Below, piece by piece: positions 9,344-61,672 of a stretch of 64,000 nucleotides of DNA. The translations under genes and the position numbers were made by a program. The DNA is from an uncultured Candidatus Saccharibacteria bacterium (GTDB lineage: Bacteria; Patescibacteriota; Minisyncoccia; Phycocordibacterales; UBA12088): contig CAZLUD010000001.1 in assembly GCA_964562615.1 (NCBI GenBank), forward strand, positions 327,628 through 391,627. The letters run 5' to 3'. The notes under the pieces are model-generated. The model had not been told where the DNA came from. It searched no databases and saw only the letters and a list, made by a program, of their open reading frames with translations. Position 1 is the first letter of the stretch. Every line of letters starts with the position of its first letter.

Positions 9344-9835
9344 CTATGGTATAAGTACGGCACGAGGGTTTATAAGGTGTACATGAAAATGATCAGGGAT
9401 AGATTTAAATTTTTTTGTCGCTTCGATTACATACTGATAGGTATCAGCAATGTGTGTATGTTTAATCTCAATCAATTCCTCCTTCTCTTCTTGGGTTAGC
9501 CCTCGTTCGTCTATGTGACGAATTGGAATAAGCATGTGGTGTACTTCAGCAATCTTTCCGTACGGGAAGGCATTGATAACTATCCGCCAATGAATAAATG
9601 TGTGAATCGCTGGTTCATCACTACAAAGCGGACATCCAGCATCTACTAGTAGCGACTTACGACGAGCTCTATATGCTTCTTCTACCTCGGGTAGTCTCAG
9701 TGATACTGGTGTATACGACATAGTCTGAGTATACATCAATGTTGGTAGTAGATAAAAATAGTGGTCTTGTAACGCTTTTATATCAAACAACACTCGATTC
9801 GGGGCGCCCTTGGCCAAAATATTATCGTGCCACAA
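9344..9835 (-). CDS. HIT (histidine triad) family hydrolase. The annotated N-terminus (MWHDNILAKGAPNRV) is encoded by a repeat unit, so the true start is probably an internal Met.
   Basis: HFHVHLI histidine-triad motif; CPLC zinc-type motif. The first ~15 codons lie in repeat R2, which is duplicated at 10048-10080. Confidence 0.55.
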   Translation of the reverse strand: MWHDNILAKGAPNRVLFDIKALQDHYFYLLPTLMYTQTMSYTPVSLRLPEVEEAYRARRKSLLVDAGCPLCSDEPAIHTFIHWRIVINAFPYGKIAEVHHMLIPIRHIDERGLTQEEKEELIEIKHTHIADTYQYVIEATKKFKSIPDHFHVHLINPRAVLIP

Positions 9836-10126
9836 GGGTACTTCAAGAAATATAGTCGCGTTGCTCCTTATTTCTTTGGTCGCTCGAAGCGTTGCTTCTC
9901 TCTCTGTATTTTGTCGGGGCGCCGAGAAGGGGTCAGCTCACTAAGTACATTGAGTCGCAAACTCCTCAATGTACTAAGTGGCTCCTCCCCGGCCTCGCAG
10001 CCCCATTTCTCACGTTGTTCGAAATGGGGACCCGCTGCTCCGGCTTTCGATTCTCGGCGCCCTTGGCCAAAATAGTATCGCTCGAAGCGTTGCTTCTCTC
10101 TCTGTATTTTGTCGGGGCGCCGAGAA
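9795..10126. repeat. tRNA-Pro-linked composite repeat. A 46-bp direct repeat (9883-9928 and 10081-10126) contains the tRNA-Pro 3' end plus 30 nt of trailer. A ~33-bp direct repeat sits at 9795-9826 and 10048-10080. An inverted copy of the tRNA T-arm/acceptor (TTTCGATTCTCGGCGCCC, 10045-10062) faces the direct copy (GGGGCGCCGAGAA, 9915-9928) across a 120-nt hairpin-rich core. The segment 9827-9882 is an inverted copy of 10915-10975.
   Basis: Aligned by eye. Core hairpins: ACTAAGTACATTGAG/CTCAATGTACTAAGT and CCCCATTTC/GAAATGGGG. Confidence 0.6.
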
Positions 10127-10182
10127 TCGAACTCGGGCTACACGGTCCCAAACCGTGCGTACTACCTCTATACGACGCCCCG
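10112..10182 (-). tRNA. tRNA-Pro (anticodon TGG).
   Basis: Minus-strand cloverleaf: acceptor CGGGGCG/CGCCCCG, anticodon stem CACGG/CCGTG with loop TTTGGGA, T-arm CCGAG-TTCGATT-CTCGG. 71 nt; no CCA encoded. Confidence 0.8.
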
Positions 10183-10253
10183 CGAGACAAAACAATATGA
10201 CTCGTTAAGATAACGTACCACAAAATAAGAATAAAATGAAGCGTATAGCGCTC

Positions 10254-10742
10254 CTAGAAAGAGACATTCTCAAAGAATTCACACTTTGCTAGTTTTTTAT
10301 CTTCATCTATATAGACCGTAACAAGATCAACCTGCCACTCCCCCACCTCACGCTCTTCCAGATACATTTCTATGGTGCTAAGTAATTTTGCCAGCTTGTG
10401 GCGAGTCATGTTTTCTTCAGGTCGTATACCCGGTACTGACTGGACATACAATCCATTAGACTCGGCAATAGTACATACAGCACTCTTTACTTCTATAAAA
10501 TGAGTTACTCCCCCGCTCATGGTTACAACATCTATCTCTCCATGATTAGTACGAATATTTCTATCCACCACATCGTGACCTCTATCTAAAAGCCACTTCA
10601 CGGCCAAATCCTCACCTAATTTTCCTGTCTTTTGAGCGGTAGTTGTACCATAGTTCCACATATTCATAGTATAAGCCATATTCTGGTATTTTGGTAGAAA
10701 AAGTCCCTTTATAAGAGACCAAAAAAGTCGTCCTTTATACAC
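10254..10742 (-). CDS. YraN/UPF0102 family endonuclease-like protein (restriction-endonuclease-like fold).
   Basis: Pattern GEDLAVKWL...GHDVVDRNIRTNHGEIDVV...THFIEVKS resembles the YraN consensus (GE..A..YL...G...L.RN.R...GEIDLI....FVEVK.R). The start is probably an internal Met. Confidence 0.5.
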   Translation of the reverse strand: MYKGRLFWSLIKGLFLPKYQNMAYTMNMWNYGTTTAQKTGKLGEDLAVKWLLDRGHDVVDRNIRTNHGEIDVVTMSGGVTHFIEVKSAVCTIAESNGLYVQSVPGIRPEENMTRHKLAKLLSTIEMYLEEREVGEWQVDLVTVYIDEDKKLAKCEFFENVSF

Positions 10743-10879
10743 TAATCCCCAGAGTTATCCACAGTTTTGACCTATTCTGTGTATTTCTTTTAGGCTGTTT
10801 CGGCACGAATTATACCGAGGATAGGCGCAATAATAGGATGAAAGAATAAAGCAAAATATATCCCTAATGCTCCCGCTCT

Positions 10880-11175
10880 CTCCTCTTATTTAGTGTGCGA
10901 CCTAATTTTGTTGAGCGACCAAAGAAATAAGGAGCAAAGCGACTATATTTCTTGAAGTACCCCTTGTGGCACGTAGCGATTACAAAATGGAAGTACTCTC
11001 TGTGGTGCGACCTAATTTTTACGACCGTAGGGAGATAAAAATGGAAGTACTCTTTGTGGTGCGACCTAATTTTGTTGAGCGACCAAAGAAATAAGGAGCA
11101 AAGCGACTATATTTCTTGAAGTACCCCTTGTGGCACGTAGCGATTACAAAATGGAAGTACTCTTTGTGGTGCGGG
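10880..11175. repeat. Tandem array of two ~115-bp units (approx. 10893-11009 and 11056-11172) separated by a truncated 54-bp unit. Each unit ends with the motif AAAATGGAAGTACTCT(C/T)TGTGGTGCG. The array begins with a duplicate of the tRNA-Gly(GCC) trailer (CTCCTCTTATTTAGTGTGCG).
   Basis: Direct repeats aligned by eye. This is not CRISPR-like: the units are long and the spacer is itself repeat-derived. Confidence 0.7.
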
Positions 11176-11309
11176 TAGGGAGAATCGACCCGCTTTTGCT
11201 AAGCTCGCAATGCTCGCTAAGCACGCTGGTCGCGCCTCGCCGACAATTTTACTTCGCTTTGCTACGTAAAATCGTAGACCGGCTCCGGCGTTCGATTCTC
11301 CCTACCCGC
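11169..11309. repeat. tRNA-Gly(GCC)-linked palindromic element. Perfect 18-19 bp terminal inverted repeats (GTGCGGGTAGGGAGAATCGA ... TTCGATTCTCCCTACCCGC) are copies of the T-arm/acceptor 3' strand of the adjacent tRNA-Gly, and they flank a ~100 nt core. In tRNA sense, the distal arm reads ...CCCGCACCA, ending in a CCA that the genomic tRNA lacks.
   Basis: Seen directly. The core is homologous to the Lys-linked element at 61377-61526 (shared blocks GCTAAGCAC, TCGCCGACAATTTT, CGTAAAATCGTAGACC, GCTCCGGCGTTCGA). Confidence 0.7.
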
Positions 11310-11354
11310 CTAAAATATATCGTCAAAGCTCCGCTTTCTCCTCTTATTTTAGTG

Positions 11355-11425
11355 TGCGGGTAGGGAGAATCGAACTCCCGTCTGCTCCATGGCAAGGAGC
11401 CGTCATACCACTAAACTATACCCGC
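11355..11425 (-). tRNA. tRNA-Gly (anticodon GCC).
   Basis: Minus-strand cloverleaf: acceptor GCGGGTA/TACCCGC, anticodon stem GCTCC/GGAGC with loop TTGCCAT, T-arm GGGAG-TTCGATT-CTCCC. 71 nt; no CCA encoded. Confidence 0.8.
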
Positions 11426-11491
11426 AGTTGAGGTGACATACGCCCCTCAATTGCTCAAAACAATACCACTTATCCCCTCCCCTCTCAAGTT

Positions 11492-11701
11492 TTAATGAAC
11501 GTCCTGCTTTAGCTCCTTTAACGAAAGATCATTAAAGTAAAGGTATGCAAGCGCAACAACTCCAGGAAGGATGTCTCCCAAAAATGAATTGCCAAAAAAG
11601 TAGTCAGCGCCGTGCCATATCGCTCTCCAAATAAGTGCCAAACACACTACCACAAGGACCGAGTTAATTACCCCATGACGCTTTATAAAGTCTTGAAACA
11701 T
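11492..11701 (-). CDS. Hypothetical small membrane protein (69 aa, two hydrophobic segments).
   Basis: ORF only; it overlaps the tRNA-Arg trailer region. Confidence 0.25.
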   Translation of the reverse strand: MFQDFIKRHGVINSVLVVVCLALIWRAIWHGADYFFGNSFLGDILPGVVALAYLYFNDLSLKELKQDVH

Positions 11702-29817: not shown

Positions 29818-31596
29818 ATGAATGCAACAAGATCAATCATAATTTCATCGCTTCTGATCATCAGTGCGTACGCATCTTCTGTTTGGATATATTCCCCAAA
29901 GCTCTCTGCTCAGACACCTCCTCAAGAACCAGTTACCTGTGAAGAAGTAGACACCACCATCGCACAGCTCACCGCCCTTCGAGCACGAGCAGAGGCAGCA
30001 GACACTCCAGAGGAGATGCAGGCAGTAGTGGATGAATTTAATAGACTAGAGACACATAATGGTAACGATTTGGTGGTAGCACAACAAGAAAATCAACTTG
30101 AAGATAGAAGAGCATATTTAATAAGTAGAATAGAGGACACAAAGGAGGTTGATGCAGCACAAGGTGGAAGAAATGCAGAAGAGCTTGATGAGCTACTTGC
30201 ACGAGCAGAGGCTGCAGATGACTTTACCGAGCTTGGACGAGTAGAAGGAGAGCTTGGTGAGATACGAGGGAGATTGGGGCTTAGCGGTGGAGGAAGTGGT
30301 GGGGGTGGGGGAGGAGGGGGAGGTGGAGTAATTGGTGGAGGAGGCGATGGATCATGGGCTGGAGGAGTGCTTGATGGCAGTGGCAAAAACAACAGAGCGC
30401 CCGTTCCTGCATTTACAAGAACAGTTGTGCTTGGGCCAGGAGATGATATACAAGGGGCAATTAATAGTGCTACCCCAGGCACTGACATCCAACTCAAAAG
30501 TGGTACGTACAATTACTCCAACCTAAGCATAAGCGGAAAGGGTGGAAATCCGAACGCATGGATACGGCTTGGCAATGCTCCTGGAGAACATCCTATTCTT
30601 AGGCCGACAGGAGGATATGCAACCCTAAACGTGGCAGGCGGTTCGAGCTATATTCTAATTGAGGGACTGGAAATAAATGGGAGTAGGGTGGGAACAACAC
30701 TTCCTGATGGGACATATATTGGATCATGGAATGATATGCTTGCCTACTCTAATAGGAGTTGCAGTAATATCGGATACCATTGCAATCAGGGTATAATGCT
30801 CGGTTGCGGAGGCTGTAATACCAATCAAGGGCACCACATTGTCGTTCGAGATAATGTTACCCACGACTTTGGAGGCTCTGGTATTAGCACCTTTGGTGTT
30901 GATTATGTGATTATTGAAGACAATGTTTCTTTCAATAATGGCAATTTCTCTCGTTATGGGGAGAGTGGTATATCTGCTGGATTTCCAGCACTGGTAGGGG
31001 GAGGAAGCATGAGTGACTACGGCTTTATTGTAAGGAGAAACACCACCTACGATAATAAGCAATACTTGGGGTCAATAGACTGTGGTTGTGGCCCAGGTAT
31101 TACCGATGGTAACGGCATAATTCTTGACGGTATGGATCATAATGGTGCATACAGAAGAGTTCTTGTTGAGAGTAATCTTTCGTACAACAATGGTGTTGAG
31201 GTGCCTGGGCAGGGTGTGCATGGGTCAGGAATGCATTCAGTCGATTCTTCTAATGCAGAGTTCATAAATAACACCGCGTATGGTAATGCAGCTGCGCAGA
31301 TATTTGCATGTTGCGCCTCAAACAACAATAAGTTTTACAACAACATAGCAATAGGCAATAGGCCGTTGTTTGCTGCCCACGGTGTCCCTTTTACTGGAGG
31401 ATGTAACATATCGAGTGGTTCTGAAAATGTACCTACTACTGTTACTGACCCAATGTTTGTAAACCCTAGCGCTGGAGACTTTAGCTTGCGGGCGGGATCT
31501 CCGGCAATAAACGCCGCATGCGGACAAACCGCATCAAGCGACCTTAATGGAGCCCTCGCAAATGGGGCAAAAGATATCGGTGCTATAGAAATGTAG
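29818..31596 (+). CDS. Secreted protein with signal peptide, shared coiled-coil N-module, Gly-rich linker (GGGSGGGGGGGGG) and a C-terminal right-handed parallel beta-helix domain (pectate-lyase/polysaccharide-lyase-like repeats).
   Basis: Recurrent N-x-G/NNG-type beta-helix coil motifs (VRDNVTHDFGGSGIST, IEDNVSFNNGNFSRYGESGISAG, VESNLSYNNGVEVPG, INNTAYGNAAAQ). Confidence 0.5.
   Translation: MNATRSIIISSLLIISAYASSVWIYSPKLSAQTPPQEPVTCEEVDTTIAQLTALRARAEAADTPEEMQAVVDEFNRLETHNGNDLVVAQQENQLEDRRAYLISRIEDTKEVDAAQGGRNAEELDELLARAEAADDFTELGRVEGELGEIRGRLGLSGGGSGGGGGGGGGGVIGGGGDGSWAGGVLDGSGKNNRAPVPAFTRTVVLGPGDDIQGAINSATPGTDIQLKSGTYNYSNLSISGKGGNPNAWIRLGNAPGEHPILRPTGGYATLNVAGGSSYILIEGLEINGSRVGTTLPDGTYIGSWNDMLAYSNRSCSNIGYHCNQGIMLGCGGCNTNQGHHIVVRDNVTHDFGGSGISTFGVDYVIIEDNVSFNNGNFSRYGESGISAGFPALVGGGSMSDYGFIVRRNTTYDNKQYLGSIDCGCGPGITDGNGIILDGMDHNGAYRRVLVESNLSYNNGVEVPGQGVHGSGMHSVDSSNAEFINNTAYGNAAAQIFACCASNNNKFYNNIAIGNRPLFAAHGVPFTGGCNISSGSENVPTTVTDPMFVNPSAGDFSLRAGSPAINAACGQTASSDLNGALANGAKDIGAIEM
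29954..30320 (+). repeat. Copy 1 of a 367-bp near-identical intragenomic repeat encoding the shared N-terminal module. It pairs with 31741-32107.
   Basis: Nucleotide alignment by eye; only a handful of mismatches. Confidence 0.85.
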
Positions 31597-31607
31597 ATTG
31601 TTGCTTC

Positions 31608-33065
31608 ATGAAAAACGCAATCAGTATAAGTAGTTTTGTATCACTCGTAGTGATCGCGCTATCGTGCGTGAGCATCATTCCAACAAGAAGTAGTGCGCAA
31701 ACACCACCGCAAGAACCGATTACTTGCCAAGAAGTTTCTTCCACCATCGCACAACTCACCGCCCTTCGAGCACGAGCAGAGGCAGCAGACACTCCAGAGG
31801 AGATGCAGGCAGTAGTGGATGAATTTAATAGACTAGAGACACATAATGGTAACGATTTGGTGGTAGCACAACAAGAAAATCAACTTGAAGATAGAAGAGC
31901 ATATTTAATAAGTAGAATAGAGGACACAAAGGAGGTTGATGCAGCACAAGGTGGAAGAAATGCAGAAGAGCTTGATGAGCTACTTGCACGAGCAGAGGCT
32001 GCAGATGACTTTACCGAGCTTGGACGAGTAGAAGGAGAGCTTGGTGAGATACGAGGGAGATTAGGGCTTAGTGGTGGAGGAAGTGGTGGGGGTGGGGGAG
32101 GAGGGGGCACAGTAGGTGGAGGAGGCGGGGGCACCACCACACCAGGAACAGGGGTGGGCTCAGGTACCGCTGCGGGTACACCAACAGACACTGGCTTTGC
32201 TCCAGCAGGGTATACACTTGCGTGGAATGATGAATTCAATTCTCTTAGCTTAGGAAGTGGTTCAGCGTTTAGATGGACGCCATTTGATACGCTTGCTGCA
32301 AATGCTGGATATGATGCAAAAGGAAGAATACTTGCAAGTAACAGCTCTGATGCTATATGGGTTGCTGATTACGAAACAAATGCAGGTGGGACACGAACGT
32401 ATGGTGACGCATTTAAGGCAGCCGGCACCTACGGTGAGGGGCCATTCTTCCATGAGGTAAGTGATGGCGCACTTGCTATGCGTGCGTATCCAGTACCAAG
32501 CTCAGTACGCAACGAATTTATTGCGTATGGATGGCCGCAGGGTGCTCCATACGCCGCAGGTGGAATATTTGGATCACTCTCACATACCCAAACATACGGC
32601 TACTATGAAGTGCGGCTGCGTGTAAATTCAATAACAAGAGGCCAACATTTTGCGCTTTGGCTACTCCAAGACGACCTTGCATGGCCTCCTGAGATAGACA
32701 TGCTTGAGGTTATTGGTGAAAATCCTCAGTTTTATCACACTACCGTACACGGCGAAGGGCCAAATGGCTCTGACCCAACCACCTCATTTAAGCTGCTTCC
32801 AGCAGGAGGGAGCGGGACATGGCACACCTACGGATTTTTGTGGACACCTGAAAGTATGCGATTTTTTGTCGATGGAAAGGAGTATTTCTTAAGAGAAAAT
32901 TATGGGGAAGGGGCAGAAATAGGAACATTACCTAACTTTGTAAACAAGCCAATGTACCTCCTTGCAACCTGGGAAATGGCAAGCTATTGGCCAGGAGATC
33001 CTGATGCAACTACCGTGTGGCCAGCAGAGGTTGAGCTTGATTACGTCCGCATCTACAAACCATAG
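31608..33065 (+). CDS. Secreted protein: the same N-module plus Gly-rich linker as 29818-31596, fused to a glycoside hydrolase family 16-like (beta-glucanase/laminarinase-type) domain.
   Basis: GH16-like motifs WNDEFN and catalytic E-I-D-M-L-E (PPEIDMLEVIGE). Confidence 0.55.
   Translation: MKNAISISSFVSLVVIALSCVSIIPTRSSAQTPPQEPITCQEVSSTIAQLTALRARAEAADTPEEMQAVVDEFNRLETHNGNDLVVAQQENQLEDRRAYLISRIEDTKEVDAAQGGRNAEELDELLARAEAADDFTELGRVEGELGEIRGRLGLSGGGSGGGGGGGGTVGGGGGGTTTPGTGVGSGTAAGTPTDTGFAPAGYTLAWNDEFNSLSLGSGSAFRWTPFDTLAANAGYDAKGRILASNSSDAIWVADYETNAGGTRTYGDAFKAAGTYGEGPFFHEVSDGALAMRAYPVPSSVRNEFIAYGWPQGAPYAAGGIFGSLSHTQTYGYYEVRLRVNSITRGQHFALWLLQDDLAWPPEIDMLEVIGENPQFYHTTVHGEGPNGSDPTTSFKLLPAGGSGTWHTYGFLWTPESMRFFVDGKEYFLRENYGEGAEIGTLPNFVNKPMYLLATWEMASYWPGDPDATTVWPAEVELDYVRIYKP
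31741..32107 (+). repeat. Copy 2 of the 367-bp near-identical repeat (pairs with 29954-30320).
   Basis: Nucleotide alignment by eye. Confidence 0.85.
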
Positions 33066-38280: not shown

Positions 38281-38784
38281 TTGCCAACAATTATTTATAT
38301 AAATGACTTAGCTATAGGTTGTATTCGAGGTACAATATACTCACATACCCCTATGCGTTATCACGTACCACAATTTATTGATATCGAAGATAAAGTGGTT
38401 GGACCACTTACCATAAAACAGTTTGTGTACATCGCGGGAGGTGTAGGGTTTGTTGCACTTCTTACCGCATTTATGCCGTGGCAGTGGGCTGCTATTGTGG
38501 GTAGTCCGCTTGTACTCCTTGGATTACTCCTTGCCTTCTATCAAGTAAACAATCAACCTTTTATCGCAATAATGGAAGCGGCATTTTATTACCTTGTGAG
38601 TAAAAAACTCTATCTTTGGAAAAAGAATACTGGGGTAAAAGATGAAGCAAAAGAAATGGTAGGGAAGGAAGCGCTCGTGCATACTCCCTATGTGCCAAAA
38701 GTCTCTAATAATAGACTTAAAGAGCTTGCGTGGTCACTAGACATAAAAGATAAAACTGGTGGTTCAACACTAAATCAATCGTAG
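38281..38784 (+). CDS. PrgI/TcpE/VirB3-like small membrane protein of Gram-positive-type T4SS.
   Basis: Motif GPLTIKQFVYIAGGVG followed by two transmembrane helices. It lies immediately upstream of the VirB4-like ATPase. Confidence 0.45.
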   Translation: MPTIIYINDLAIGCIRGTIYSHTPMRYHVPQFIDIEDKVVGPLTIKQFVYIAGGVGFVALLTAFMPWQWAAIVGSPLVLLGLLLAFYQVNNQPFIAIMEAAFYYLVSKKLYLWKKNTGVKDEAKEMVGKEALVHTPYVPKVSNNRLKELAWSLDIKDKTGGSTLNQS

Positions 38785-38785
38785 T

Positions 38786-39430
38786 ATGAAAGAAGTTAAT
38801 AAAAAATCAGGCGCATCACAAGCATTTGTACCCATCGAGGAGGTGCGAGATGGAATTGTCATACTTAAAGACGGCTCATTGCGCGGAGTGTTTATGGCGT
38901 CATCGACCAACCTCGCCCTAAAGGGGCAAGACGAGCAACAAGCTATCCTCACCCAGTTTGGACAATTCCTTGATTCGCTTGATTTTTCAGTGCAATTTTT
39001 TGTGCAATCACGAAAACTTGATATTCGCCCCTATGTCGCCATGCTTGAAGCGCGCTATGTTGAACAAACAGAAGAGCTCATGAAAATACAGGTACGTGAG
39101 TATGTAGATTTCATAAAAACATTTACCGAGGGTGCCAATATCATGACAAAAAGCTTCTTTGTGGTAGTGCCATACGCACCAGCAATTATTGGTAGCGCAT
39201 CATCAATAAATCCTTTTGCAAAAAAAGACGAAAGTGGTGAAGCGTCCAATGCCACCTTTGAAGAGAGCAGGTCACAACTTGAGCAGCGCATGGGCATCGT
39301 ACAACAGGGGTTGCTACGATCTGGAGTACGGGTCGCACAACTCGGAACCGAAGAGGTGATAGAATTGTTTTACAAGATGTTTAACATGGGTGAACTAGAG
39401 CGCCCTATCCCTCTTGATAACAGAGCATAG
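38786..39430 (+). CDS. T4SS-associated hypothetical protein (214 aa) whose N-terminus resembles the N-terminal region of VirB4-family proteins (VPIEEVRDGIVILKDGSLRGV).
   Basis: Motif similarity by recollection only. Its stop (TAG at 39428-39430) lies 5 nt before the VirB4 start. Confidence 0.35.
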   Translation: MKEVNKKSGASQAFVPIEEVRDGIVILKDGSLRGVFMASSTNLALKGQDEQQAILTQFGQFLDSLDFSVQFFVQSRKLDIRPYVAMLEARYVEQTEELMKIQVREYVDFIKTFTEGANIMTKSFFVVVPYAPAIIGSASSINPFAKKDESGEASNATFEESRSQLEQRMGIVQQGLLRSGVRVAQLGTEEVIELFYKMFNMGELERPIPLDNRA

Positions 39431-39435
39431 TATAT

Positions 39436-41271
39436 ATGGGACTATTTGATATCTTTAACAAAAAAGGCGACAAAGAGTCGATGGAGGATTACCACATCCA
39501 GCCCGTACTTCCTGCAGAGATGTTTGAAGTTGGCTCTCTTGAGCTTAAAGATGTTATCGCACCATCTGCGCTAGAGATTACCCCCAAAGAAATGAACTTG
39601 GGTGACAAAGTAGTCCGAACATTTTTTGTTATTTCGTACCCGAGCTTTCTCTCTGATAACTGGTTTTCTCCAATTATCAATCTCGATAAAGTGTTTGATG
39701 TCTCAATCTTTGTTCATCCTATAGACACCGCCTCGGTACTTAAAAAGTTTCAAAAAAAGGTAGCAGAGGTACAAAGCCAGATTCAACTACGCGAAGAAAA
39801 AGGACTTGTCCGCGACCCAAAACTAGATAGTGCATATCAAAACCTCGAGGAACTCCGTGATAAATTGCAACAAGCACAGGAGCGTCTGTTTGATGTTGGT
39901 TTGTATATCTCTATATACGGAGACAGTAGGGAGGAGCTTGATAAAATTGAATCAGAGATAAAATCAATTCTAGAAGCGCAGTTGGTCTATTTAAAGCCCG
40001 CACTCTTTCAACAGGAGCAGGGGTGGAAGAGTGTCATACCTATTTCTACCGACTTACTTAGTGTGCATTCAAAACTAAACTCTCAACCACTTTCAAGCTT
40101 TTTTCCTTTTATTTCTTTTGATCTCTCTGCAGATACCGGTATCCTCTATGGTATCAACCGCCACAACTCATCTTTGGTGTTGTTTGACCGATTCTCAATG
40201 GAAAACTACAACTCTGTGGTATTTGCAAAATCTGGTTCTGGAAAGTCCTACACCATAAAGCTAGAGATTTTGCGTTCACTCATGTTTGATACAGACATCA
40301 TTGTTATCGACCCAGAACGTGAGTATGAATATATCGCTGAAGCAACTGGCGGGCGTCACTTTAACATTTCACTTTCATCAGGTCACCATATCAATCCGTT
40401 TGATCTTCCTATACCCCGAGAGGACGAGTCTCCTTCAAACGTTCTTCGATCACACGTGGTATCGCTGGTGGGATTGTTTCGTATTATGCTCGGCGGGCTT
40501 TCTCCAGAAGAAGACTCAATTATAGACAGGGCAATAACCGAGACCTACGCACTAAAAGACATCACCGGTGAACATGACTTTTCAAGCATGAACCCACCGC
40601 TTCTCTCTGATTTTGAACTAGTACTTGCTGGTATGGATGGAAGTGAATCACTTGTACAACGACTCACCAAGTACACCAAGGGTACGTGGGCAGGATTTAT
40701 TAACCGTCCTACCAATGTTGATATCAACAAACGATTCGTGGTGTTTTCAGTACGTGACATGGAAGACGAGCTGAAGACTGCCGCGATGTACATCATCACT
40801 AACTTTATTTGGGCAACCATACGCAAAGAGCTCAAAAAGAGGCTCTTGGTGGTAGATGAGGCGTGGTGGATGATGAAATCAGAAGACACCGCATCATTTC
40901 TCTATGGTATTGCAAAGCGAGGACGAAAATACTATCTAGGTTTGGCAACCATCACTCAAGACGTTGATGACTTTTTGAAAAGCCCATATGGCGTACCGAT
41001 GATCACCAACTCATCTATACAATTACTCCTTAAACAATCTCCAACCTCAATAGGAACAATCCAGCAGGTATTTAACCTTACCGATGAAGAGAAATATCTT
41101 CTTCTTGAATCTAATGTGGGGGAGGGGATATTCTTTGCTGGCATGAAGCACGTAGCGATAAAGATAATTGCTTCGTACACCGAGGATCAGATTATTACCT
41201 CTGATCCGTCACAGCTCCTCTCTATAAAGAAAGCACGCGATGAAAAAAAGGCGTCTGTTGATACGGTATAA
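39436..41271 (+). CDS. virB4: VirB4/TrbE/CagE-family type IV secretion ATPase.
   Basis: Walker A (VVFAKSGSGKSYTIK), Walker B (LLVVDEAWWMM). The N-terminal block APSALEI...RTFFVISYPSFLSDNWFSPIINLDKVFDVSIFVHPID is typical of Gram-positive VirB4 homologues. Confidence 0.8.
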   Translation: MGLFDIFNKKGDKESMEDYHIQPVLPAEMFEVGSLELKDVIAPSALEITPKEMNLGDKVVRTFFVISYPSFLSDNWFSPIINLDKVFDVSIFVHPIDTASVLKKFQKKVAEVQSQIQLREEKGLVRDPKLDSAYQNLEELRDKLQQAQERLFDVGLYISIYGDSREELDKIESEIKSILEAQLVYLKPALFQQEQGWKSVIPISTDLLSVHSKLNSQPLSSFFPFISFDLSADTGILYGINRHNSSLVLFDRFSMENYNSVVFAKSGSGKSYTIKLEILRSLMFDTDIIVIDPEREYEYIAEATGGRHFNISLSSGHHINPFDLPIPREDESPSNVLRSHVVSLVGLFRIMLGGLSPEEDSIIDRAITETYALKDITGEHDFSSMNPPLLSDFELVLAGMDGSESLVQRLTKYTKGTWAGFINRPTNVDINKRFVVFSVRDMEDELKTAAMYIITNFIWATIRKELKKRLLVVDEAWWMMKSEDTASFLYGIAKRGRKYYLGLATITQDVDDFLKSPYGVPMITNSSIQLLLKQSPTSIGTIQQVFNLTDEEKYLLLESNVGEGIFFAGMKHVAIKIIASYTEDQIITSDPSQLLSIKKARDEKKASVDTV

Positions 41272-41279
41272 TACGGGGT

Positions 41280-41756
41280 ATGCACGTAGATAACGACAAT
41301 TACAGAATTTCCTCCTTTACAGGAGGCATGATGGTGAGTGTTGCCATGATAACCGACGTGGTGCAAATGGCACTCACCGGGCTACACCTATTTATCCCCC
41401 TCTTTGGGAGTATGCTTTCTATACTTAGTATCTTTGGTATAACCACCCTCGGGGGGCTTATTTTCTTTCTTTGGTTTCATATTCTTGATGTGAGTCAAAT
41501 AGATTCAGCGCTTGATAACCCTGGCGCAACATTTGCCTTTTCGATTGCAGAACTATCGCCGTTTGTTAACTTTCTCCCTTTTATGACTATAAAAGTAGCG
41601 TGGGAGGTATACTCATCGAGGCTTTCAGACAAAAAAGAGATGGAGAAAAGCAAGAAGAAAAAAGCACAACTACGACAACGTCAGTTACAACAGGCGATGA
41701 ATGCTCGTATGTTGGCACAAAATGCAAATAATCAAGTAATTCAAGATGCGAGCTAG
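41280..41756 (+). CDS. Small polytopic membrane protein with a Lys/Gln-rich C-terminal tail; a T4SS cluster component.
   Basis: Hydrophobicity only. Confidence 0.35.
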   Translation: MHVDNDNYRISSFTGGMMVSVAMITDVVQMALTGLHLFIPLFGSMLSILSIFGITTLGGLIFFLWFHILDVSQIDSALDNPGATFAFSIAELSPFVNFLPFMTIKVAWEVYSSRLSDKKEMEKSKKKKAQLRQRQLQQAMNARMLAQNANNQVIQDAS

Positions 41757-41789
41757 AGGAGGGGGGTAAAAAGGTGGTATACTTTTTTT

Positions 41790-42806
41790 ATGATTCGTAT
41801 AGGTATGATGATGGTGATATGGAGTGTGGGGATATTGGTATCTCTTAGTCCTTTACCGTTGCTTGCACAGTCATTTGGTATTGGCATACCATCGCCAACT
41901 ATTGGCGGTTCGCCTCTTACCATGGAAATGTTTCCTCAATACGCACGCCCGGGTGAGTATGTGGAGTTTTCTTTAGTTAGCTCAACCATCGCACTTTCAA
42001 CCGCTACTGTCACCTGGACAGTAAATGGTACTCGAGTATTTTCTGGTGCATCGGCAACAAAATACGTGTATAAAATCCCAGAGAGTACTGATCCATTTGT
42101 GGTGGTAGCAGATGTCTACACAAGAACAAATCAGTACTTTACGACACGTCTTACCGTACAACCATCATCTCTTACCCTCCTCTATGAAGGCGCCACCTAC
42201 GCGCCGCCACTATATGCCGGAAGACCAACACTCTCACCAGAGGCAAGTCTTTCGGTACACGCGATTCCTGCTGTGATAGAAAACGGCATAGAGCTACAAC
42301 CGGATGATCTCTATTTTAAGTGGACCGTGAATGGAAAGTTTGTTTCTGAATTATCTGGACTTGGCAAAAGCTCTGCGATTGTAGCAAACACTGGGTACCT
42401 CCGTCCTTTAGATATTATTGTGGAGGCATCATCAGATAACGGAACCATTGCAGGGGATAGAATAAAAGTGTCGGTAGAAAATCCGTGGGTTGTCTTCTAT
42501 GAAAATGATCCGTTGCTTGGCATTCGCTACGACAAAGCACTTGGAACATACTCGCTAAAAAATGAGGAGGTGACAGTTATTGCAGAGCCCTACCATATGA
42601 GCGCATACAAAAGAAATGATGCTACCCTTGAGTATTCTTGGGGAATCAATCAGGAACGACAGGCAGAAACCACTGCACCGAGCATCACCCTTCGTCCACA
42701 GAGCGATACAGGTAGTGGAATCTCTACCATAGGTGTTTATATACAAAATACCGTCTTCGAACTGCAAAACGTAGCTAATGCATTTAGAATAAACCTCTCA
42801 CAATAA
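41790..42806 (+). CDS. Secreted protein (signal peptide, 338 aa), likely beta-rich; a T4SS cluster component.
   Basis: N-terminal signal-like segment MIRIGMMMVIWSVGILVSLSPLPLLA. Confidence 0.35.
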   Translation: MIRIGMMMVIWSVGILVSLSPLPLLAQSFGIGIPSPTIGGSPLTMEMFPQYARPGEYVEFSLVSSTIALSTATVTWTVNGTRVFSGASATKYVYKIPESTDPFVVVADVYTRTNQYFTTRLTVQPSSLTLLYEGATYAPPLYAGRPTLSPEASLSVHAIPAVIENGIELQPDDLYFKWTVNGKFVSELSGLGKSSAIVANTGYLRPLDIIVEASSDNGTIAGDRIKVSVENPWVVFYENDPLLGIRYDKALGTYSLKNEEVTVIAEPYHMSAYKRNDATLEYSWGINQERQAETTAPSITLRPQSDTGSGISTIGVYIQNTVFELQNVANAFRINLSQ

Positions 42807-42812
42807 TATTGT

Positions 42813-43298
42813 ATGAATGTTGTAACTATACTAAAAGGGCTGCTCATATTCATGGTCACGCTAGTTATCGCGGTACCATCATACGCCCTTGCTGCTGATC
42901 CAATCGAGCCGTTAATTTTCCTTCCACGGATTGTTGGTGATGCATCATCTCCGACAAGCGTAGAGGGGCTGCTTCAAGGATTGTTTCAACTTTCCATTTC
43001 AATCGGTGCGATTTTGGCAGTGATAATGATTGCTGTTGGTGGTATTGAGTATATGGGTAGTGACGCAATATCAAGCAAGCAAGCAGGGAGAGAGCGTATG
43101 TTTAATGCAGTACTTGGGCTAGTGCTTATACTTGGTACCTATGTGATTTTAAATACAATAAATCCCAATCTCCTTAGCTTTGCTATTTTCTCCGCCCCTG
43201 GTAATCAGGTTGAATCTAGAGCTGATTTTCCAACTGAGGCAGTAACAAATCCAGGCAGTGGGCCTACACAGGGGGTACCTGCTGGTACCAGTGGTTAA
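42813..43298 (+). CDS. VirB2/TrbC-like pilin-type protein: a signal peptide followed by two hydrophobic helices separated by a short polar loop.
   Basis: Topology (signal, then LFQLSISIGAILAVIMIAVGGIEYM, polar loop, then AVLGLVLILGTYVILN) resembles T4SS pilins. There is no sequence-level proof. Confidence 0.35.
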   Translation: MNVVTILKGLLIFMVTLVIAVPSYALAADPIEPLIFLPRIVGDASSPTSVEGLLQGLFQLSISIGAILAVIMIAVGGIEYMGSDAISSKQAGRERMFNAVLGLVLILGTYVILNTINPNLLSFAIFSAPGNQVESRADFPTEAVTNPGSGPTQGVPAGTSG

Positions 43299-43374
43299 GC
43301 ACTTTGCTTGACTTGCGCTTGGGTCTAATTAGTTGTATAAAATATACAGTGAAAACCTGAAGTAGGAGGTACTC

Positions 43375-43815
43375 GTGTTTAAGGCACTACTGAGGAGTGT
43401 GTTGCTCCTTGCTTTTCTTGGGAGCCCCATTTATGGGGCTGAATACAGCAAAAAACCAATTGTAGTGGACGCACTGGGGGGGAGGATGTTAGGGGTTAAT
43501 GCCCTAACACAAAACGACAACTACATTTGGTATGGGAAAGACGAAGAAGTTCGGGATGTGACGATGAAAGTCATCTGCACTCTCGAACAGGCGAACACCG
43601 AATTTGTGGTTCTTGTCGATCCACAAACTAACAGTGCGGTTGAGGTGCGAGGGCATCACTTCATCTATCTCAAGTATTTTAGGGTGGACGGCATATCCAC
43701 CCACAAGTGCGACAAACGAGTCGTCGCGATCGAGAAGGGTACCTTAAAGAGTATCCTTCAGATAAACGAAGAAAAGCTGCAAATCAGGCAGGTGGCAGTT
43801 GTAGCTACAAACTAA
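43375..43815 (+). CDS. Small secreted protein (146 aa).
   Basis: Signal-like N-terminus. Confidence 0.3.
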   Translation: MFKALLRSVLLLAFLGSPIYGAEYSKKPIVVDALGGRMLGVNALTQNDNYIWYGKDEEVRDVTMKVICTLEQANTEFVVLVDPQTNSAVEVRGHHFIYLKYFRVDGISTHKCDKRVVAIEKGTLKSILQINEEKLQIRQVAVVATN

Positions 43816-45237
43816 ATGGGAGGTATCCTCAATGAGGATAACCGGAGGCAGAAGGAGCGCATCGAGATGAAATACGATGCGCTTTTTCAATTATGCCATT
43901 TGGCATACGTTGATAATTACAAACACCCGCACCCTCCACGCGTTAGTAAATCCATGAGATACTACAGCTACATGGAGGATCTAAAAAAGAAACTTGCCGA
44001 AAATTGGAAGCAACTAGTACTACTCATCATAGTAGTGCTTATACTCATTGCGGTTGCAATGTTTATGTTTTTACGAAGTGACACTAACTCCACCAACACA
44101 ACAGAGACTGGGGTATTTCCACAAGCGGGGGATAGGGGGATTGGCTTTCCTAACACCAACGAGCAAGGCGGTATAAGCAATACACCCGCAACAACCACAA
44201 ACGAGATTCCGCTATTAAGACAATTGTGGAGTAAGCCTGTTTCTGGGGCTGGGTATTTTCGAAGCAATGAAGAGACTCTTGCGGTGCGCTTTGTTGAAAG
44301 AGCTAGCGGCCATATATATGACATACCTACAGATAGCCTTACCGCTACCAAAATACTCAATATTACTATCCCTCGTATTCAACACGCATTCTTTTTTAAT
44401 AACGGAGGAAATCTAATTCTTCAATATCTTAGCGATCTGCATACCAGCATCGAAACCTATAGCGCCACCCTTATACCCGTCTTGGATGATGGAGAAAACG
44501 CTTATTCGCTTGATGGGACATTCTTACCCGCTGACATTACGGCAATAACCCCATCACCGGATGGCAAATCGCTTTCATTTATTCAAAAGAACGAAACCGG
44601 TTCAACACTATATAAGTCGTCACTTGATGCGGGAAGCGCGGTTGAGTTGTTTAGAAGTCCTTTTAAGAGTTGGCGATTAGAGTGGGCAAGTCCAAGTAGG
44701 GTAGTGCTTACCTCTGCACCTCATCCAGGCGCAATTGGTTCCACTTTTGCTATTGCAACAGAAGATGGGGCACTCAAAAGTTTGGTCACCTCTAAGAATG
44801 GTTCATTTACCGCATCAAGTAATGACAACCTTACCTATACTGTTTTCTCTGAAGAGATTGATAAAGTGGTGAGATTGTATGCCTATGACTACGCAAAAAA
44901 GGAGCGCAAGAATCTTAATTTGAGTACATTTATGGATAAATGTGTGTGGAGTAATGTCTCCAACACCACCCTATACTGTTTTGTGCCTAATCAGCTTGTC
45001 ATACCTGGAAACATCTTGGCGTGGAACCAAGGTGGAGGTAATTTTGCTGACAACATGTGGAAGATTGATGTCAGCACTGGAGAAGCCGTACTCCTATACC
45101 AAATTGATAAAGAGTTTAGCAAGTACCTCGATGTAATAAAGCCTGTACTTGCCGATGATGATTCAAGTATTACCTTTATAGACAAAAACGACCTCACACC
45201 GTGGCTCCTTTTATTTAGTACCTCAAAAGGAGAGTAG
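43816..45237 (+). CDS. Membrane-anchored protein with a large extracytoplasmic domain (possibly beta-propeller-like). The real start is probably an internal Met near MRYYSYMEDLKKK.
   Basis: Single transmembrane helix (LVLLIIVVLILIAVAMFMFL), then ~400 aa of Ser/Thr-rich beta-type sequence. Confidence 0.35.
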   Translation: MGGILNEDNRRQKERIEMKYDALFQLCHLAYVDNYKHPHPPRVSKSMRYYSYMEDLKKKLAENWKQLVLLIIVVLILIAVAMFMFLRSDTNSTNTTETGVFPQAGDRGIGFPNTNEQGGISNTPATTTNEIPLLRQLWSKPVSGAGYFRSNEETLAVRFVERASGHIYDIPTDSLTATKILNITIPRIQHAFFFNNGGNLILQYLSDLHTSIETYSATLIPVLDDGENAYSLDGTFLPADITAITPSPDGKSLSFIQKNETGSTLYKSSLDAGSAVELFRSPFKSWRLEWASPSRVVLTSAPHPGAIGSTFAIATEDGALKSLVTSKNGSFTASSNDNLTYTVFSEEIDKVVRLYAYDYAKKERKNLNLSTFMDKCVWSNVSNTTLYCFVPNQLVIPGNILAWNQGGGNFADNMWKIDVSTGEAVLLYQIDKEFSKYLDVIKPVLADDDSSITFIDKNDLTPWLLLFSTSKGE

Positions 45238-47070: not shown

Positions 47071-48453
47071 TTGCATGAAGAGACAGCTATAATAGGGGAC
47101 ATGCACACTCAAAACAATAGAGAGCTCTGGCAAAATATCCTTACTGAAATAGAGCTGACTATTCCCGGACCACATTTTAAGACATGGTTTAAAGATACCT
47201 CAATAGTAAAAATAGAAGACGGCGTAGCAACCATTGGTGTTCCTACAGAAGTTGCAAGAGAGTGGCTTCAAAAGAAGCATAGTAAGTTACTTCTTAAATC
47301 ACTACGAAGCCATCTTGATTCTGCTCGGTCTCTTGAGTTTATCGTACATAAATCAAACAAGCTCAAGCAACAAGCACCTACATCACGTAGTCCATTTTTT
47401 GCCCAAGAGTTGCCGCTCGGTGAGCATTACGTAAACAGAAGTGATAACCTCAATCCAAAATACGTATTTGAAACCTTTGTGGTTGGACCATTTAACGAAA
47501 TCGCCTTTTCTGCAGCACAGGGTGTGGTAAAAGAGCCTGGAATTACCTACAACCCATTGTTTATATATGGAAATACTGGATACGGTAAAACACACCTCAT
47601 CCAAGCTATTGGTAATCAAATAAAAAAGCAGAGCCCGAACAGAAAAGTATTCTATGTCACGAGTGAAAAATTCACTATGGATTTTGTAAACGCTCTTCAA
47701 AGCAACTCCGTTAATGCATTCAAAGAAAAGTATCGTCAATATGATGTACTTATCATGGATGATATTCAGTTTTTTGCTCAAAAAGAAAAAACACAGGAAG
47801 AGCTCTTTCACTTGTTTAACTCACTTTATCAAAACAATAAGCAGATAATCTTCTCTTGCGACAAGCACCCAAACTATATTCAGGATCTGGAAGATAGATT
47901 GAAGTCTCGATTTGCACAGGGAATGATTATTGATATATCAGAGCCAGATAGCGAGTCGCGTATCGCCATCCTTAAAACCAAGGCAGCACAACACAATTTT
48001 CACATAGAAGACTCCATGCTTACCTTTATTGCGTCACTTGTAGACGGCAACATACGAGACCTCGAGGGTATGCTTAATGCTGTTATTTGCCAAACACAAC
48101 TACGTGGTAGAGCGCTTAATCCCGGAGAAATAAAACATCTTATCAAGGATAGTTCGAGACCAAAAAGAGCCATCTCTCCAAAGGAGATAGTAAAGCGAGT
48201 AGCGGAGTTTTATGATCTTGAAGAAAATGCTATTTATGAAAAGACAAGAAAGAAGGAAGTAGTTCGTCCTCGACAACTCATTATGTACATCCTGAGAGAG
48301 GATTATAACGTGTCATATCCACTTATCGGTGAAAAGTTAGGAGGGAGAGATCACACCACTGTTATTCACTCATGTGAAAAAATCAAAAAAGATATTCAAC
48401 ATAACAGCGTATTACAACAAGAATTGCAGCATATACGCATGATGTTGAAATAG
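47071..48453 (+). CDS. dnaA: Chromosomal replication initiator DnaA.
   Basis: AAA+ Walker A (GNTGYGKTHL), sensor regions, C-terminal DNA-binding domain (QLIMYILRE...GGRDHTTVIHSCEKI). Confidence 0.9.
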   Translation: MHEETAIIGDMHTQNNRELWQNILTEIELTIPGPHFKTWFKDTSIVKIEDGVATIGVPTEVAREWLQKKHSKLLLKSLRSHLDSARSLEFIVHKSNKLKQQAPTSRSPFFAQELPLGEHYVNRSDNLNPKYVFETFVVGPFNEIAFSAAQGVVKEPGITYNPLFIYGNTGYGKTHLIQAIGNQIKKQSPNRKVFYVTSEKFTMDFVNALQSNSVNAFKEKYRQYDVLIMDDIQFFAQKEKTQEELFHLFNSLYQNNKQIIFSCDKHPNYIQDLEDRLKSRFAQGMIIDISEPDSESRIAILKTKAAQHNFHIEDSMLTFIASLVDGNIRDLEGMLNAVICQTQLRGRALNPGEIKHLIKDSSRPKRAISPKEIVKRVAEFYDLEENAIYEKTRKKEVVRPRQLIMYILREDYNVSYPLIGEKLGGRDHTTVIHSCEKIKKDIQHNSVLQQELQHIRMMLK

Positions 48454-48689
48454 TGTGGATATATATGTGGATAACAAATGAACAGTACTGTGGAAAAGAG
48501 ATGAATGAGAAAGGTGATAACTCGAGGACAACACAACTAGTACATTTCAAAAATAGGTATACGAGCCGTATGAACACTTATACACAAACATCTATGCATA
48601 AATACCTACCTGTGTAGCTATGGTTAGAAGTTATCCACGTATCCACACCCCTAATAATAAAACTATCTTTATAAGCAAAAAAACTCACT
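48454..48689. promoter_or_regulatory. Probable oriC. The DnaA-box cluster lies between dnaA and dnaN: TGTGGATAT (48455-48463), a perfect TGTGGATAA (48467-48475), TTATCCACG (48631-48639) and TATCCACAC (48640-48648). A further near-consensus box, TTATACACA, sits at 47024-47032 upstream of dnaA.
   Basis: 9-mer matches to TTATCCACA or its complement seen directly. AT-rich spacer. Classic dnaA-dnaN intergenic origin. Confidence 0.65.
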
Positions 48690-49790
48690 ATGAACTTCAC
48701 TACACCTACTGCAACGCTACTCACCATAAGCTCAATAGTTGAAAAGGTAAGTGGGAGAAATCTAACACTCGCTAATCTCAATGGGGTGTATGTTGAAGCG
48801 AGTAAGGGGCAGGTCATTCTTAGAGCAACAAACCTGGACGTTGCGGTAGAGATAAAAGTACCTGCAAAGGTGGAAGAAGACGGTGTGGCTTCAATACCGG
48901 GGAGTATGCTCTCTCAGATACTCTCAAACAGCTATAAAGGCGATAGCGTGAGCGTAGTGCGCAAAGACGGTACATTGTCCATAAAAACAGGGGACGGCCT
49001 CTCTACCATCAAAATATTGCCTGATGAGGACTTTCCAACACTCCCAAGTGTTGTTGATGGTAATAAGATAACCTTAAAGGCTAAAGATTTTATTGATGGC
49101 ATTGCTAATGTCTGGCACTGCGCATCTACGTCAACAATTAAACCGGAGCTAGCAAGTGTGTACGTATATCCTGACGGGAAGAATCTTATTTTTGTCGCAA
49201 CAGACTCATTTAGATTGGCAGAAAAGAAGGTAGCAGCACAATTTACCGGAGAGTTTGACTACATGCTCATTCCCTCAAGAAACATTCCGGAGATTATTAA
49301 GGTACTTGAGATTGCTGAAGGAGAAGTCGAACTTACCTTTAATGATCATCAGCTTTCATTTACCTTTGACTCGGTACACCTTACTACGCGTCTTACTGAC
49401 GGGGTATTCCCTGACTACAGACAAATTATTCCAAAGCAACGTGTTGCCGAAGTAACGGTACTTACTAAGGATTTGCAACAAGCATGCAAAAGAACCAGCA
49501 TGTTCTCTGATAAGTTTAATCAAGTGCAGTTTTCGATACAACCATCAAAAAAGATATGTAGAGTTATTGCTAAAAACCCAGATGTTGGCGAGTCAGTAAC
49601 TGATCTTGATGCAGTTATAGAAGGGGAGGAGCTTGATATCTCGTTTAATGTTAAGTACATCAGTGAAGTGTTTCAGGCACTACAAGCGGATAGTGTCTCG
49701 CTCTCATTTTCAGGAACCGCAAAACCTTTAGTTATTAAAGGGGTGAGTAATGCATCATTCCTTTACTTAGTGATGCCAATGAACAGATAA
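48690..49790 (+). CDS. dnaN: DNA polymerase III beta sliding clamp.
   Basis: 366 aa, three-domain length. Position after dnaA. Confidence 0.8.
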   Translation: MNFTTPTATLLTISSIVEKVSGRNLTLANLNGVYVEASKGQVILRATNLDVAVEIKVPAKVEEDGVASIPGSMLSQILSNSYKGDSVSVVRKDGTLSIKTGDGLSTIKILPDEDFPTLPSVVDGNKITLKAKDFIDGIANVWHCASTSTIKPELASVYVYPDGKNLIFVATDSFRLAEKKVAAQFTGEFDYMLIPSRNIPEIIKVLEIAEGEVELTFNDHQLSFTFDSVHLTTRLTDGVFPDYRQIIPKQRVAEVTVLTKDLQQACKRTSMFSDKFNQVQFSIQPSKKICRVIAKNPDVGESVTDLDAVIEGEELDISFNVKYISEVFQALQADSVSLSFSGTAKPLVIKGVSNASFLYLVMPMNR

Positions 49791-61308: not shown

Positions 61309-61526
61309 ATGGAAGTACATTTGTGGTGCGACCAAAAAATAATGAGCTCTGCGAATATATTTTTTGAAGTACTCTTGTGGTGCGCCCGGGAGCTCGGTCA
61401 CTAGTTGCTAACCATTTTGTACGCTTCGCTTCAAAATGCTAAGCACTTGCGACCCCGACTCGGCGACAATTTTGCTCCATTTCATTTCGCAAAATCGTAA
61501 ACCGCCTCCGTCTTTCGAACCCTACG
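61309..61526. repeat. tRNA-Lys-linked element. It has two copies of the motif (ATGGAAGTACATTTGTGGTGCG at 61309-61330; TTGAAGTACTCTTGTGGTGCG at 61364-61384). The 5' arm is a copy of the tRNA-Lys 3' end including CCA (GTGGTGCGCCCGGGAG, 61377-61395). The ~115 nt core is homologous to the Gly-GCC element core. The distal arm is a degenerate inverted T-arm (TTTCGAACCCT, 61511-61525).
   Basis: Aligned by eye with 11169-11309. Confidence 0.6.
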
Positions 61527-61596
61527 CAAAGCACGAAGGTGCTTTGCTCCACGGGGCACCTAATCAAAATGGAACACCTACGTGTTCTATTTTTCA

Positions 61597-61672
61597 TGGT
61601 GCGCCCGGGAGGGTTCGAACCTCCGACCAATGGCTTAAAAGGCCACTGCTCTACCAGCTGAGCTACAGGCGC
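61597..61672 (-). tRNA. tRNA-Lys (anticodon TTT) with genomically encoded CCA.
   Basis: Minus-strand cloverleaf: acceptor GCGCCTG/CGGGCGC, D-arm GCTC-AGCTGGTA-GAGC, anticodon loop CTTTTAA, T-arm GGAGG-TTCGAAC-CCTCC, 3' ACCA. Confidence 0.85.

Follow-up and report, generated by a model that had tools for sequence, protein, structure and literature searches.

The window, by which we mean the whole stretch of 64,000 nucleotides analyzed here, contains five tRNA genes, four of which are followed on their 3′ side by a palindromic element (~86-205, 9913-10062, 11171-11309 and ~61378-61560). Read in the tRNA sense, the tRNA at these loci leads into its trailer, which forms an AT-rich hairpin, and then into the palindrome: first the final 17-23 nt of the tRNA in inverted form, then a core of ~100 nt, then the tRNA end once more in direct orientation. 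The trailer is repeated after that. The palindrome cores at tRNA-Pro and tRNA-Gly(GCC), as well as a Gly core at another locus (L158), have AATCGAA-N-GCCGGAGC in common, and GGCGAGGCG is common to the Gly(GCC) and L158 cores. The tRNA-Arg gene has no palindrome in the window; a 131-nt copy is present in the 99%-identical strains L003 and L004 at the position equivalent to 11738/11739 (L003:677-790), showing that the palindromic elements are polymorphic among strains. tRNA-Lys is the only tRNA gene of the window with an encoded CCA (region 61545-61603).

At tRNA-Gly(GCC), the arms of the palindromic element, P-Gly (11171-11188 and 11292-11309), repeat the final 18 nt of the tRNA, the first in direct and the second in inverted orientation; in strain L004, the arm equivalent to 11174-11188 reads GGTAGACCGAATCGA and not GGTAGGGAGAATCGA. 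An array of repeated units occupies precisely the interval from the second trailer copy (10853-10899) to the direct tRNA-like arm (11171-11188). It abuts the tRNA-like end of P-Gly, and a homologous arrangement with a single element of the same kind is found at L158. A UPF0102/YraN nuclease-like gene (10254-10661) adjoins the locus, as it does at L158 (1618-2082), and is the only nuclease-like neighbor to recur near these elements (four further loci), an adjacency that probably reflects conserved gene order. The features of the array and of two related sites in the window are collected in Table 1.

Table 1 Features of the Gly(GCC) array and of related sites in the window.
Feature	Coordinates	Strand	Evidence
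tRNA-Gly(GCC) trailer, second copy, displaced; ends GTGCG, the complement of the tRNA end CGCAC and the insertion target	10853-10899	−	Repeat families D10, D12
Long unit 1: outer E2 (10900-10917 and 10974-11009) split by nested E3	10900-11009	+	Repeat finder, strain comparison, nhmmer matches
E3a, 56 nt, inside the hairpin loop of E2, immediately 3′ of GAGCG	10918-10973	+	Alone as a 55-nt element at 9826-9880; hairpin fold
E1, complete 54-nt element of another subfamily	11010-11063	+	Best nhmmer match, E = 1e-12
Long unit 2: E2 (11064-11081 and 11138-11173) with nested E3	11064-11173	+	99% identical to unit 1
E3b, nested 56-nt element	11082-11137	+	Repeat, nhmmer and strain comparison
Palindromic element P-Gly	11171-11309	−	Inverted repeats I3, I4; direct family D4
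Native tRNA-Gly(GCC) trailer, AT-rich hairpin	11310-11353	−	Sequence and repeats
tRNA-Gly(GCC), CCA not encoded	11354-11425	−	tRNA/Rfam search
E3c, solitary 55-nt E3 after GAGCG in a duplicated tRNA-Pro trailer	9826-9880	−	Inverted repeats I1, I2 (98%), nhmmer
Mini-array at the tRNA-Lys palindromic element: tail-only remnant (61309-61330), then 54-nt E4 (61331-61384)	61309-61384	+	Tail scan, fold, nhmmer

We examined the array with a repeat finder, which returned two 115-nt copies (10895-11009 and 11059-11173) with 99% identity and a start-to-start distance of 164 nt, together with a three-member family of 48-nt repeats that ties these long copies to the shorter unit at 11010-11063. The array comprises three units, two of 110 nt that agree at 99% and one of 54 nt, each closed by a 26-nt motif, AAAATGGAAGTACTCTNTGTGGTGCG, which occurs exactly three times in the window (10984-11009, 11038-11063 and 11148-11173). 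No further site was found in the 64 kb when three mismatches were allowed, 100 shuffles gave 0 sites, and the array is absent from the Tandem Repeats Finder listing. On the plus strand, each unit opens with ACC directly after ...GCG and closes with GAAGTACYCYTTGTGGYRCG. A reading made from the sequence alone had described two full units of ~115 bp and a truncated one, 88-97% identical to each other. The array itself is real, but the long units agree at 99%, and the supposedly truncated unit is a complete, different member of the family with its own hairpin. Elsewhere in the window, two adjacent paralogous ORFs (29818-33065) have a 300-nt repeat in common (29907-30206 and 31694-31993, 95% identical) and carry Gly-rich GGTGG-type tandem repeats, the second ORF with a glycosyl hydrolase 16 domain.

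The long units are composite. An uninterrupted 54-nt element, E2, is present in strain contig L003, where ACCTAATTTTGTTGAGCG is joined directly to TAGCGATTACAAAATGGAAGTACTCTCTGTGGTGCG without the central 56 nt, and the central piece of the long unit (ACCAAAGAAAT...GAAGTACCCCTTGTGGCACG), E3, stands alone at 9826-9880 on the minus strand. Because uninterrupted E2 and solitary E3 both exist, we read the long unit as E2 with E3 in its loop. Relatives of E1 and E2 also adjoin each other in a Vogelbacteria MAG (L025). The apparent tandem array consists of hairpin elements of ~55 nt that are stacked side by side or nested in one another.

The sequence-only reading had further proposed that a copy of the tRNA-Gly(GCC) trailer seeded the array, through iterative copying of a cassette composed of a tRNA end and its trailer. 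The trailer copy exists (10873-10891 vs 11331-11349, 19 nt, 95%, 458 nt apart, family D12), and the match extends through 10853-10873 vs 11312-11332 (family D10). However, removing 10900-11173 in silico yields ...TTATTTAGTGTGCG/GGTAGGGAGAATCGA, the junction seen at the real tRNA-Gly gene. Since the trailer copy and the arm rejoin on removal of the array, the supposed seed belongs to the palindromic element, which insertions have split, and it did not seed the array. The end of each unit does read like a tRNA 3′ terminus with CCA, as had been claimed, and elsewhere this end is fused to real tRNAs, but what follows is not the native trailer: the tRNA-Gly(GCC) trailer reads CACTAAAATAAGAGG, whereas the array unit reads CACAAAGAGTACTTCC after CGCACCA, and the sequence at that point, CAAAGAGTACTTCC, differs from CACTAAAATAAGAGG. 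Only C72-A73-CCA (5-7 nt) is tRNA-like, and the same unit occurs near other tRNAs and far from any, which speaks against the cassette. These data also bear on a plain satellite, in which replication slippage or unequal crossing-over would have multiplied a cassette derived from the end of tRNA-Gly and no element would have moved. The trailer copy that flanks the array, the 99% identity of the long units and their 164-nt period would fit such an origin, whereas the adjacency of units from different subfamilies, the nesting of one in another and a remainder that is not trailer would not.

We call the family to which these units belong E. On its top strand, an E element begins with AC(C/A/T), forms an AT-rich hairpin of 7-9 bp and ends in a tail, GAAGTACYC(N)TGTGGTGCG, whose conservation is partly an ascertainment effect because the search patterns demanded it; the element is placed 3′ of GWGCG. 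Sizes range from 42 to 57 nt, with most elements at ~53-57 nt and a short class at 42 nt, and several loop subfamilies have the motif GAGCG-AAGCGA in common. Neither terminal inverted repeats nor a target duplication were found at the ends (ACC... and ...GTGCG) in filled/empty and strain comparisons, and the junction repeats in the filled/empty comparisons are merely 2-6 nt (CG, CGA, CGACCT). A scan of species-representative genomes yielded 12 true copies, all in CPR/Patescibacteria MAGs; the pattern used on this collection was too degenerate, and ~108 of its 120 matches were chance occurrences in coding DNA of unrelated bacteria. A metagenome scan with a tighter pattern recovered at least ~130 true elements among the 141 tails found (at least 120 loci). 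MAGs bearing E are labeled Vogelbacteria, Lloydbacteria, Paceibacterota, Parcubacteria and Saccharibacteria. Hundreds of unrelated contigs carry E, with only one match in viral contigs, and a phage origin was rejected on the strength of that single match. In a search of Rfam 15, only tRNAs passed the gathering scores, and nothing credible appeared at E ≤ 5 within 9700-11500. We found no published description of E, either by topic or by sequence string, and the family does not seem to have been described previously.

Among the 115 distinct copies listed, 104 have at least six consecutive Watson-Crick pairs, and the arms comprise 50 different sequences. A stem of at least 7 bp is found in 83% of copies compared to 8.7% of chimeric controls with mismatched halves. 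The hairpin is kept by compensatory change, since arms with 50 different sequences remain paired relative to the chimera controls. Individual hairpins have little thermodynamic stability, with DNA folding energies of −3 to −5 kcal/mol and z-scores between −0.3 and −1.8; at the level of sequence, it is covariation that supports the hairpin, not stability. RNAalifold applied to a MAFFT alignment did not recover the main stem because its register differs between subfamilies, and the stem was then measured directly with the chimera control. Only this hairpin is well supported; a 5-bp hairpin in the tail, almost invariant, is a candidate second.

Direct repeats with a period of 54-110 nt and a hairpin in each might also suggest a defense or regulatory array, either a degenerate CRISPR or a ToxI-like antitoxin array. 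CRISPR had already been dismissed in the sequence-only reading, and our data agree: there are no unique spacers, and the window has no cas genes. The stretches between tails are hairpin bodies of the elements, relatives of which recur across genomes, no toxin genes are present in the window, neighboring genes gave no PADLOC matches, and copies are dispersed as singletons and nested forms. We therefore regard an array of this type as exceedingly improbable.

The window has eight E tails, confined to three tRNA loci, compared to an expectation of 0.02, and an nhmmer profile found no copies in the 64 kb beyond those at these loci. The same elements lie 1 kb from the Gly array in the opposite orientation and again 50 kb away, a placement that argues against a satellite. 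The tRNA-Lys trailer, ACCTAAT..AAAATGGAA..TGGTGCG, resembles a decayed E and falls below the reporting level of the profile search. The cumulative GC skew has its minimum near 12 kb, and a lone perfect DnaA box (10755-10763) lies beside the array. Six DnaA-box-like sites cluster at 48454-48647, between dnaA (47071-48453) and dnaN (48690-49790), and this cluster is probably oriC. The array as part of a replication origin was rejected, given the position of that cluster and the presence of E at unrelated loci.

The flanks of E elements reveal a preferred target. Across the 104-115 distinct copies listed, positions −5 to −3 of the left flank are G (73-76%), A/T (72-74%) and G (86%), followed by CG. 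Positions −5, −4 and −3 are free of the boundary rule that set the element start, and the GWGCG preference is also seen in copies not preceded by another E. Orthologous sites were found in both filled and empty states: at one, a 56-nt E is present in L175 but missing from L162 and L224 (AATTGGC[CGACCT]TTCGC; flanks 92-97% identical), and L199 is filled where the orthologous site in L214 is empty. At a further pair of loci, L189 has a single E, and L159 has the same E with an E of a different subfamily right after its GTGCG; because the added element belongs to a different subfamily, this array grew by insertion and not by duplication of the resident. Nested elements occupy the same loop position in the window and, independently, in L117, L214, L243 and L047, with five nested insertions following the loop motif GAGCG/AAGCG/GAGTG. 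Approximately 10% of E sites lie in loops of flanking hairpins, one of them a 17-bp intrinsic terminator, compared to 2% of controls.

Variation of the array itself could be followed in two strain contigs that span the locus, L003 from an NCBI metagenome assembly and L004 from JGI (3300043411), whose flanking genes are ~99% identical. The Gly array reads E2[E3]-E1-E2[E3] in the window, E2-E2[E3]-E1 in L003 and E1-hybrid in L004, where the hybrid unit consists of an E2 head, an E3 body and an E2-type tail. The Pro-trailer site holds E3 in the window, L002, L004 and L006, E2[E3] in L003 and L009, and E1+E3 in L005. The recent dynamics suspected from the sequence alone, for which a count of units in independent assemblies had been proposed, are borne out by three different arrangements in three independent assemblies of ~99%-identical strains. 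A repeat-caused assembly artifact might be considered at such a locus: short-read contigs break exactly at the repeats (L001 starts at 11354, and L002 and L006 end at 9909), and the array of the window is known from the assembly. We nevertheless judge this very unlikely. All three assemblies, from different samples and collections, have an E array at the Gly site, k-mers diagnostic of the junctions of each variant can be found in Logan contigs, whose construction draws on no k-mers other than those in the reads, and the family recurs in the hundreds of unrelated contigs mentioned above.

Filled and empty orthologous sites, nesting at a recurrent loop position and the differences among strain arrays all point to site-specific insertion, and we infer that the strain and filled/empty differences arise by active transposition. 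The filled/empty differences could instead reflect exact loss of the element between the junction repeats of 2-6 nt, and the two long units could be the product of a single segmental duplication. Recombination between tails also contributes, as the hybrid unit of L004 attests. This unit, which looks like recombination between repeated tails, is what a satellite would predict as well, but related copies in many genomes, mostly away from tRNAs, and the existence of orthologous empty sites argue against that origin, and we consider it quite improbable.

On the tRNA-sense strand, the end of E reads CGCACCA, and several real tRNA genes run directly into an inverted E: tRNA-Gly(GCC) at L180 and L190, tRNA-Gly(TCC) at L241 and tRNA-Phe at L151. 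These fused genes end ...C72-A73-CCA, then CA(R)GAGTACTTC, with the displaced original CGCAC at the far side of E; E thus supplies the encoded CCA of fused tRNA-Gly and tRNA-Phe genes. The tRNA-Phe junction, CCTCGG/CACCA, places the cut at GWG^CG, in agreement with the 2-nt ambiguity at all other sites. Among the tails listed, only 28 of 146 have a tRNA at a distance of 400 nt or less, with every relative orientation represented, while ~80% lie farther away, and CCA derives from E in only 3-4 of the 26 CCA-encoding tRNA genes of E loci. The tRNA link is real but indirect, concerning the target and the end sequence and not an origin by copying of a tRNA cassette. Nor is E a satellite form of the palindromic elements, as had been suggested, being an independent family in many CPR genomes with ~80% of copies more than 400 nt from a tRNA. 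E being a widespread intergenic element, the specific cassette model fails by the refuting condition that the sequence-only reading had itself set.

The precise CCA mimicry makes an RNA-level role attractive. E might act in transcripts, its UGGUGCG tail pairing with tRNA ends (CGCACCA) or giving upstream RNAs a tRNA-like CCA end, or it might be a retroelement for which a tRNA primes reverse transcription and template jumping generates arrays. The last bases of the tail are exactly complementary to C72-A73-CCA, E-tRNA fusions give a mature-type CCA end, the hairpin is kept by covariation, and E top strands are mostly antisense to neighboring genes (26 to 10). In addition, a promoter-like site upstream of tRNA-Gly and no terminator before the array suggest that the array may be co-transcribed. 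Conversely, insertions occur at GAGCG sites without tRNA context (E loops and the Pro trailer), no reverse transcriptase is encoded in the window or near other copies, and E has no Rfam match. We consider an RNA-level element unlikely.

Sequence comparison instead leads us to favor, as probable though well short of certain, the reading that the array marks a hot spot for E, a non-autonomous mobile element of very small size (42-57 nt) that inserts at GWG^CG. E would insert in one orientation, at a junction ambiguous by the two bases CG. Each E ends in GTGCG and many have GAGCG in the loop, such that every insertion would create new targets; this recreation of the target would in turn generate both head-to-tail arrays and nested copies. 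At the Gly locus, E2, E3 and E1 would have gathered at the tRNA-like end of the P-Gly palindrome, which is marked by GTGCG, and recombination between the repeated tails would then have reshuffled the array. Insertion in the end of a tRNA gene would rebuild C72-A73 and add an encoded CCA, so that such insertions would be harmless.

By analogy, the most likely class of mover might be a strand-specific HUH enzyme of the IS200/IS605 type, acting in trans on single-stranded DNA. We lean tentatively towards this class because E combines the lack of inverted ends and target duplication with a hairpin, a fixed 5′ target and a liking for hairpin loops; a serine or tyrosine recombinase acting on the CG core would be an alternative mechanism. 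The 64-kb window encodes no transposase, HUH, reverse-transcriptase or recombinase gene except for an ordinary Xer-like integrase. Clustering of ORFs within 2.5 kb of the at least ~130 E copies revealed no enriched protein family, only syntenic housekeeping families, and L170, which has two identical arrays 3 kb apart, encodes no linked transposase. Relative to co-directional neighboring genes, the E top strand showed the antisense excess given above and not the IS608-like bias expected; relative to the local majority coding strand, the ratio was 26 to 34, with gene direction serving as a proxy for the replication strand. Among other gene content of the window, the region 38281-45237 resembles a type IV secretion/conjugation cluster, with a PrgI-family protein, a TraG/VirB4-like P-loop ATPase, a T4SS pilin and many ORFs without a Pfam match.

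We compared E with known systems of small or site-specific mobile DNA. Elements of the IS200/IS605 family such as IS608, and their miniature derivatives (PATEs, moved through single-stranded DNA by Y1 HUH enzymes; PMC6006769), resemble E in lacking inverted repeats and target duplication, in carrying hairpins (subterminal and at both ends in the family; one well-supported and one candidate hairpin in E), in strand-specific insertion directly 3′ of a fixed motif of 4-5 nt (GWGCG for E) and in inserting in hairpin loops or single-stranded contexts. Unlike them, E is merely 42-57 nt long and has a 3′ end that repeats the target, leading to arrays and nesting, and no TnpA gene or full-length parent was found for it in the 64-kb window or near E copies. 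REP/REPIN-RAYT systems, as outlined in PMC3337134, PMC3733652 and PMC2817692, are short intergenic non-coding hairpin repeats that presumably depend on a single-copy enzyme in trans and are long-lived in lineages. E is likewise a short intergenic hairpin repeat without coding capacity. However, REPs are palindromes of 20-40 nt with a GTAG/CGTC tag, typically arranged in inverted pairs (REPIN/BIME), whereas E has an AC(C) start, an AT-rich covarying stem, a 19-nt non-palindromic tail and a defined insertion motif, and occurs head-to-tail or nested, with no inverted E-E pairs seen in the copies found.

Like integrative elements of tRNA 3′ ends, E inserts in the last bases of tRNA genes and supplies the terminus, here C72-A73 and CCA. 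Those elements span kilobases, encode an integrase and duplicate 15-50 nt as att, while E restores ~5 nt and lies mostly away from tRNAs. Pneumococcal BOX elements are modular intergenic repeats with variable tandem internal modules (boxA-boxB(n)-boxC), for which no dedicated transposase and no defined target motif are known. Judged by this general description, BOX and E are both small modular intergenic repeats, but they differ in sequence, host range and architecture. A MITE of a DDE transposon was rejected, as E has neither terminal inverted repeats nor a fixed-length target-site duplication.

CPR genomes are ~1 Mb in size and thought to carry few repeats. A conserved, strain-variable insertion family of 42-57 nt would give these bacteria a previously unrecognized means of genome plasticity. 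E and the tRNA-like arms explain assembly breaks at tRNA loci in this lineage, E arrays offer a handle for strain typing, and E offers tRNA genes one way of gaining an encoded CCA. The puzzle that follows is that of an enzyme recognizing GWG^CG and a 19-nt tail across Paceibacterota/Parcubacteria, Vogelbacteria, Lloydbacteria and Saccharibacteria MAGs. A broader proposal, to which we give only slight credence, is that E is a CPR-wide selfish element that would exploit the universal C72-A73-C ends of tRNAs and other GWGCG sites, carry its own CACCA to rebuild an encoded CCA, and be moved by a conserved host-encoded enzyme or possibly by reverse transcription primed by tRNA, with jumps between templates. 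If this were true, E would rank as the smallest mobile element with site-specific insertion known to date, and encoded CCA ends in these genomes would stem in part from it.
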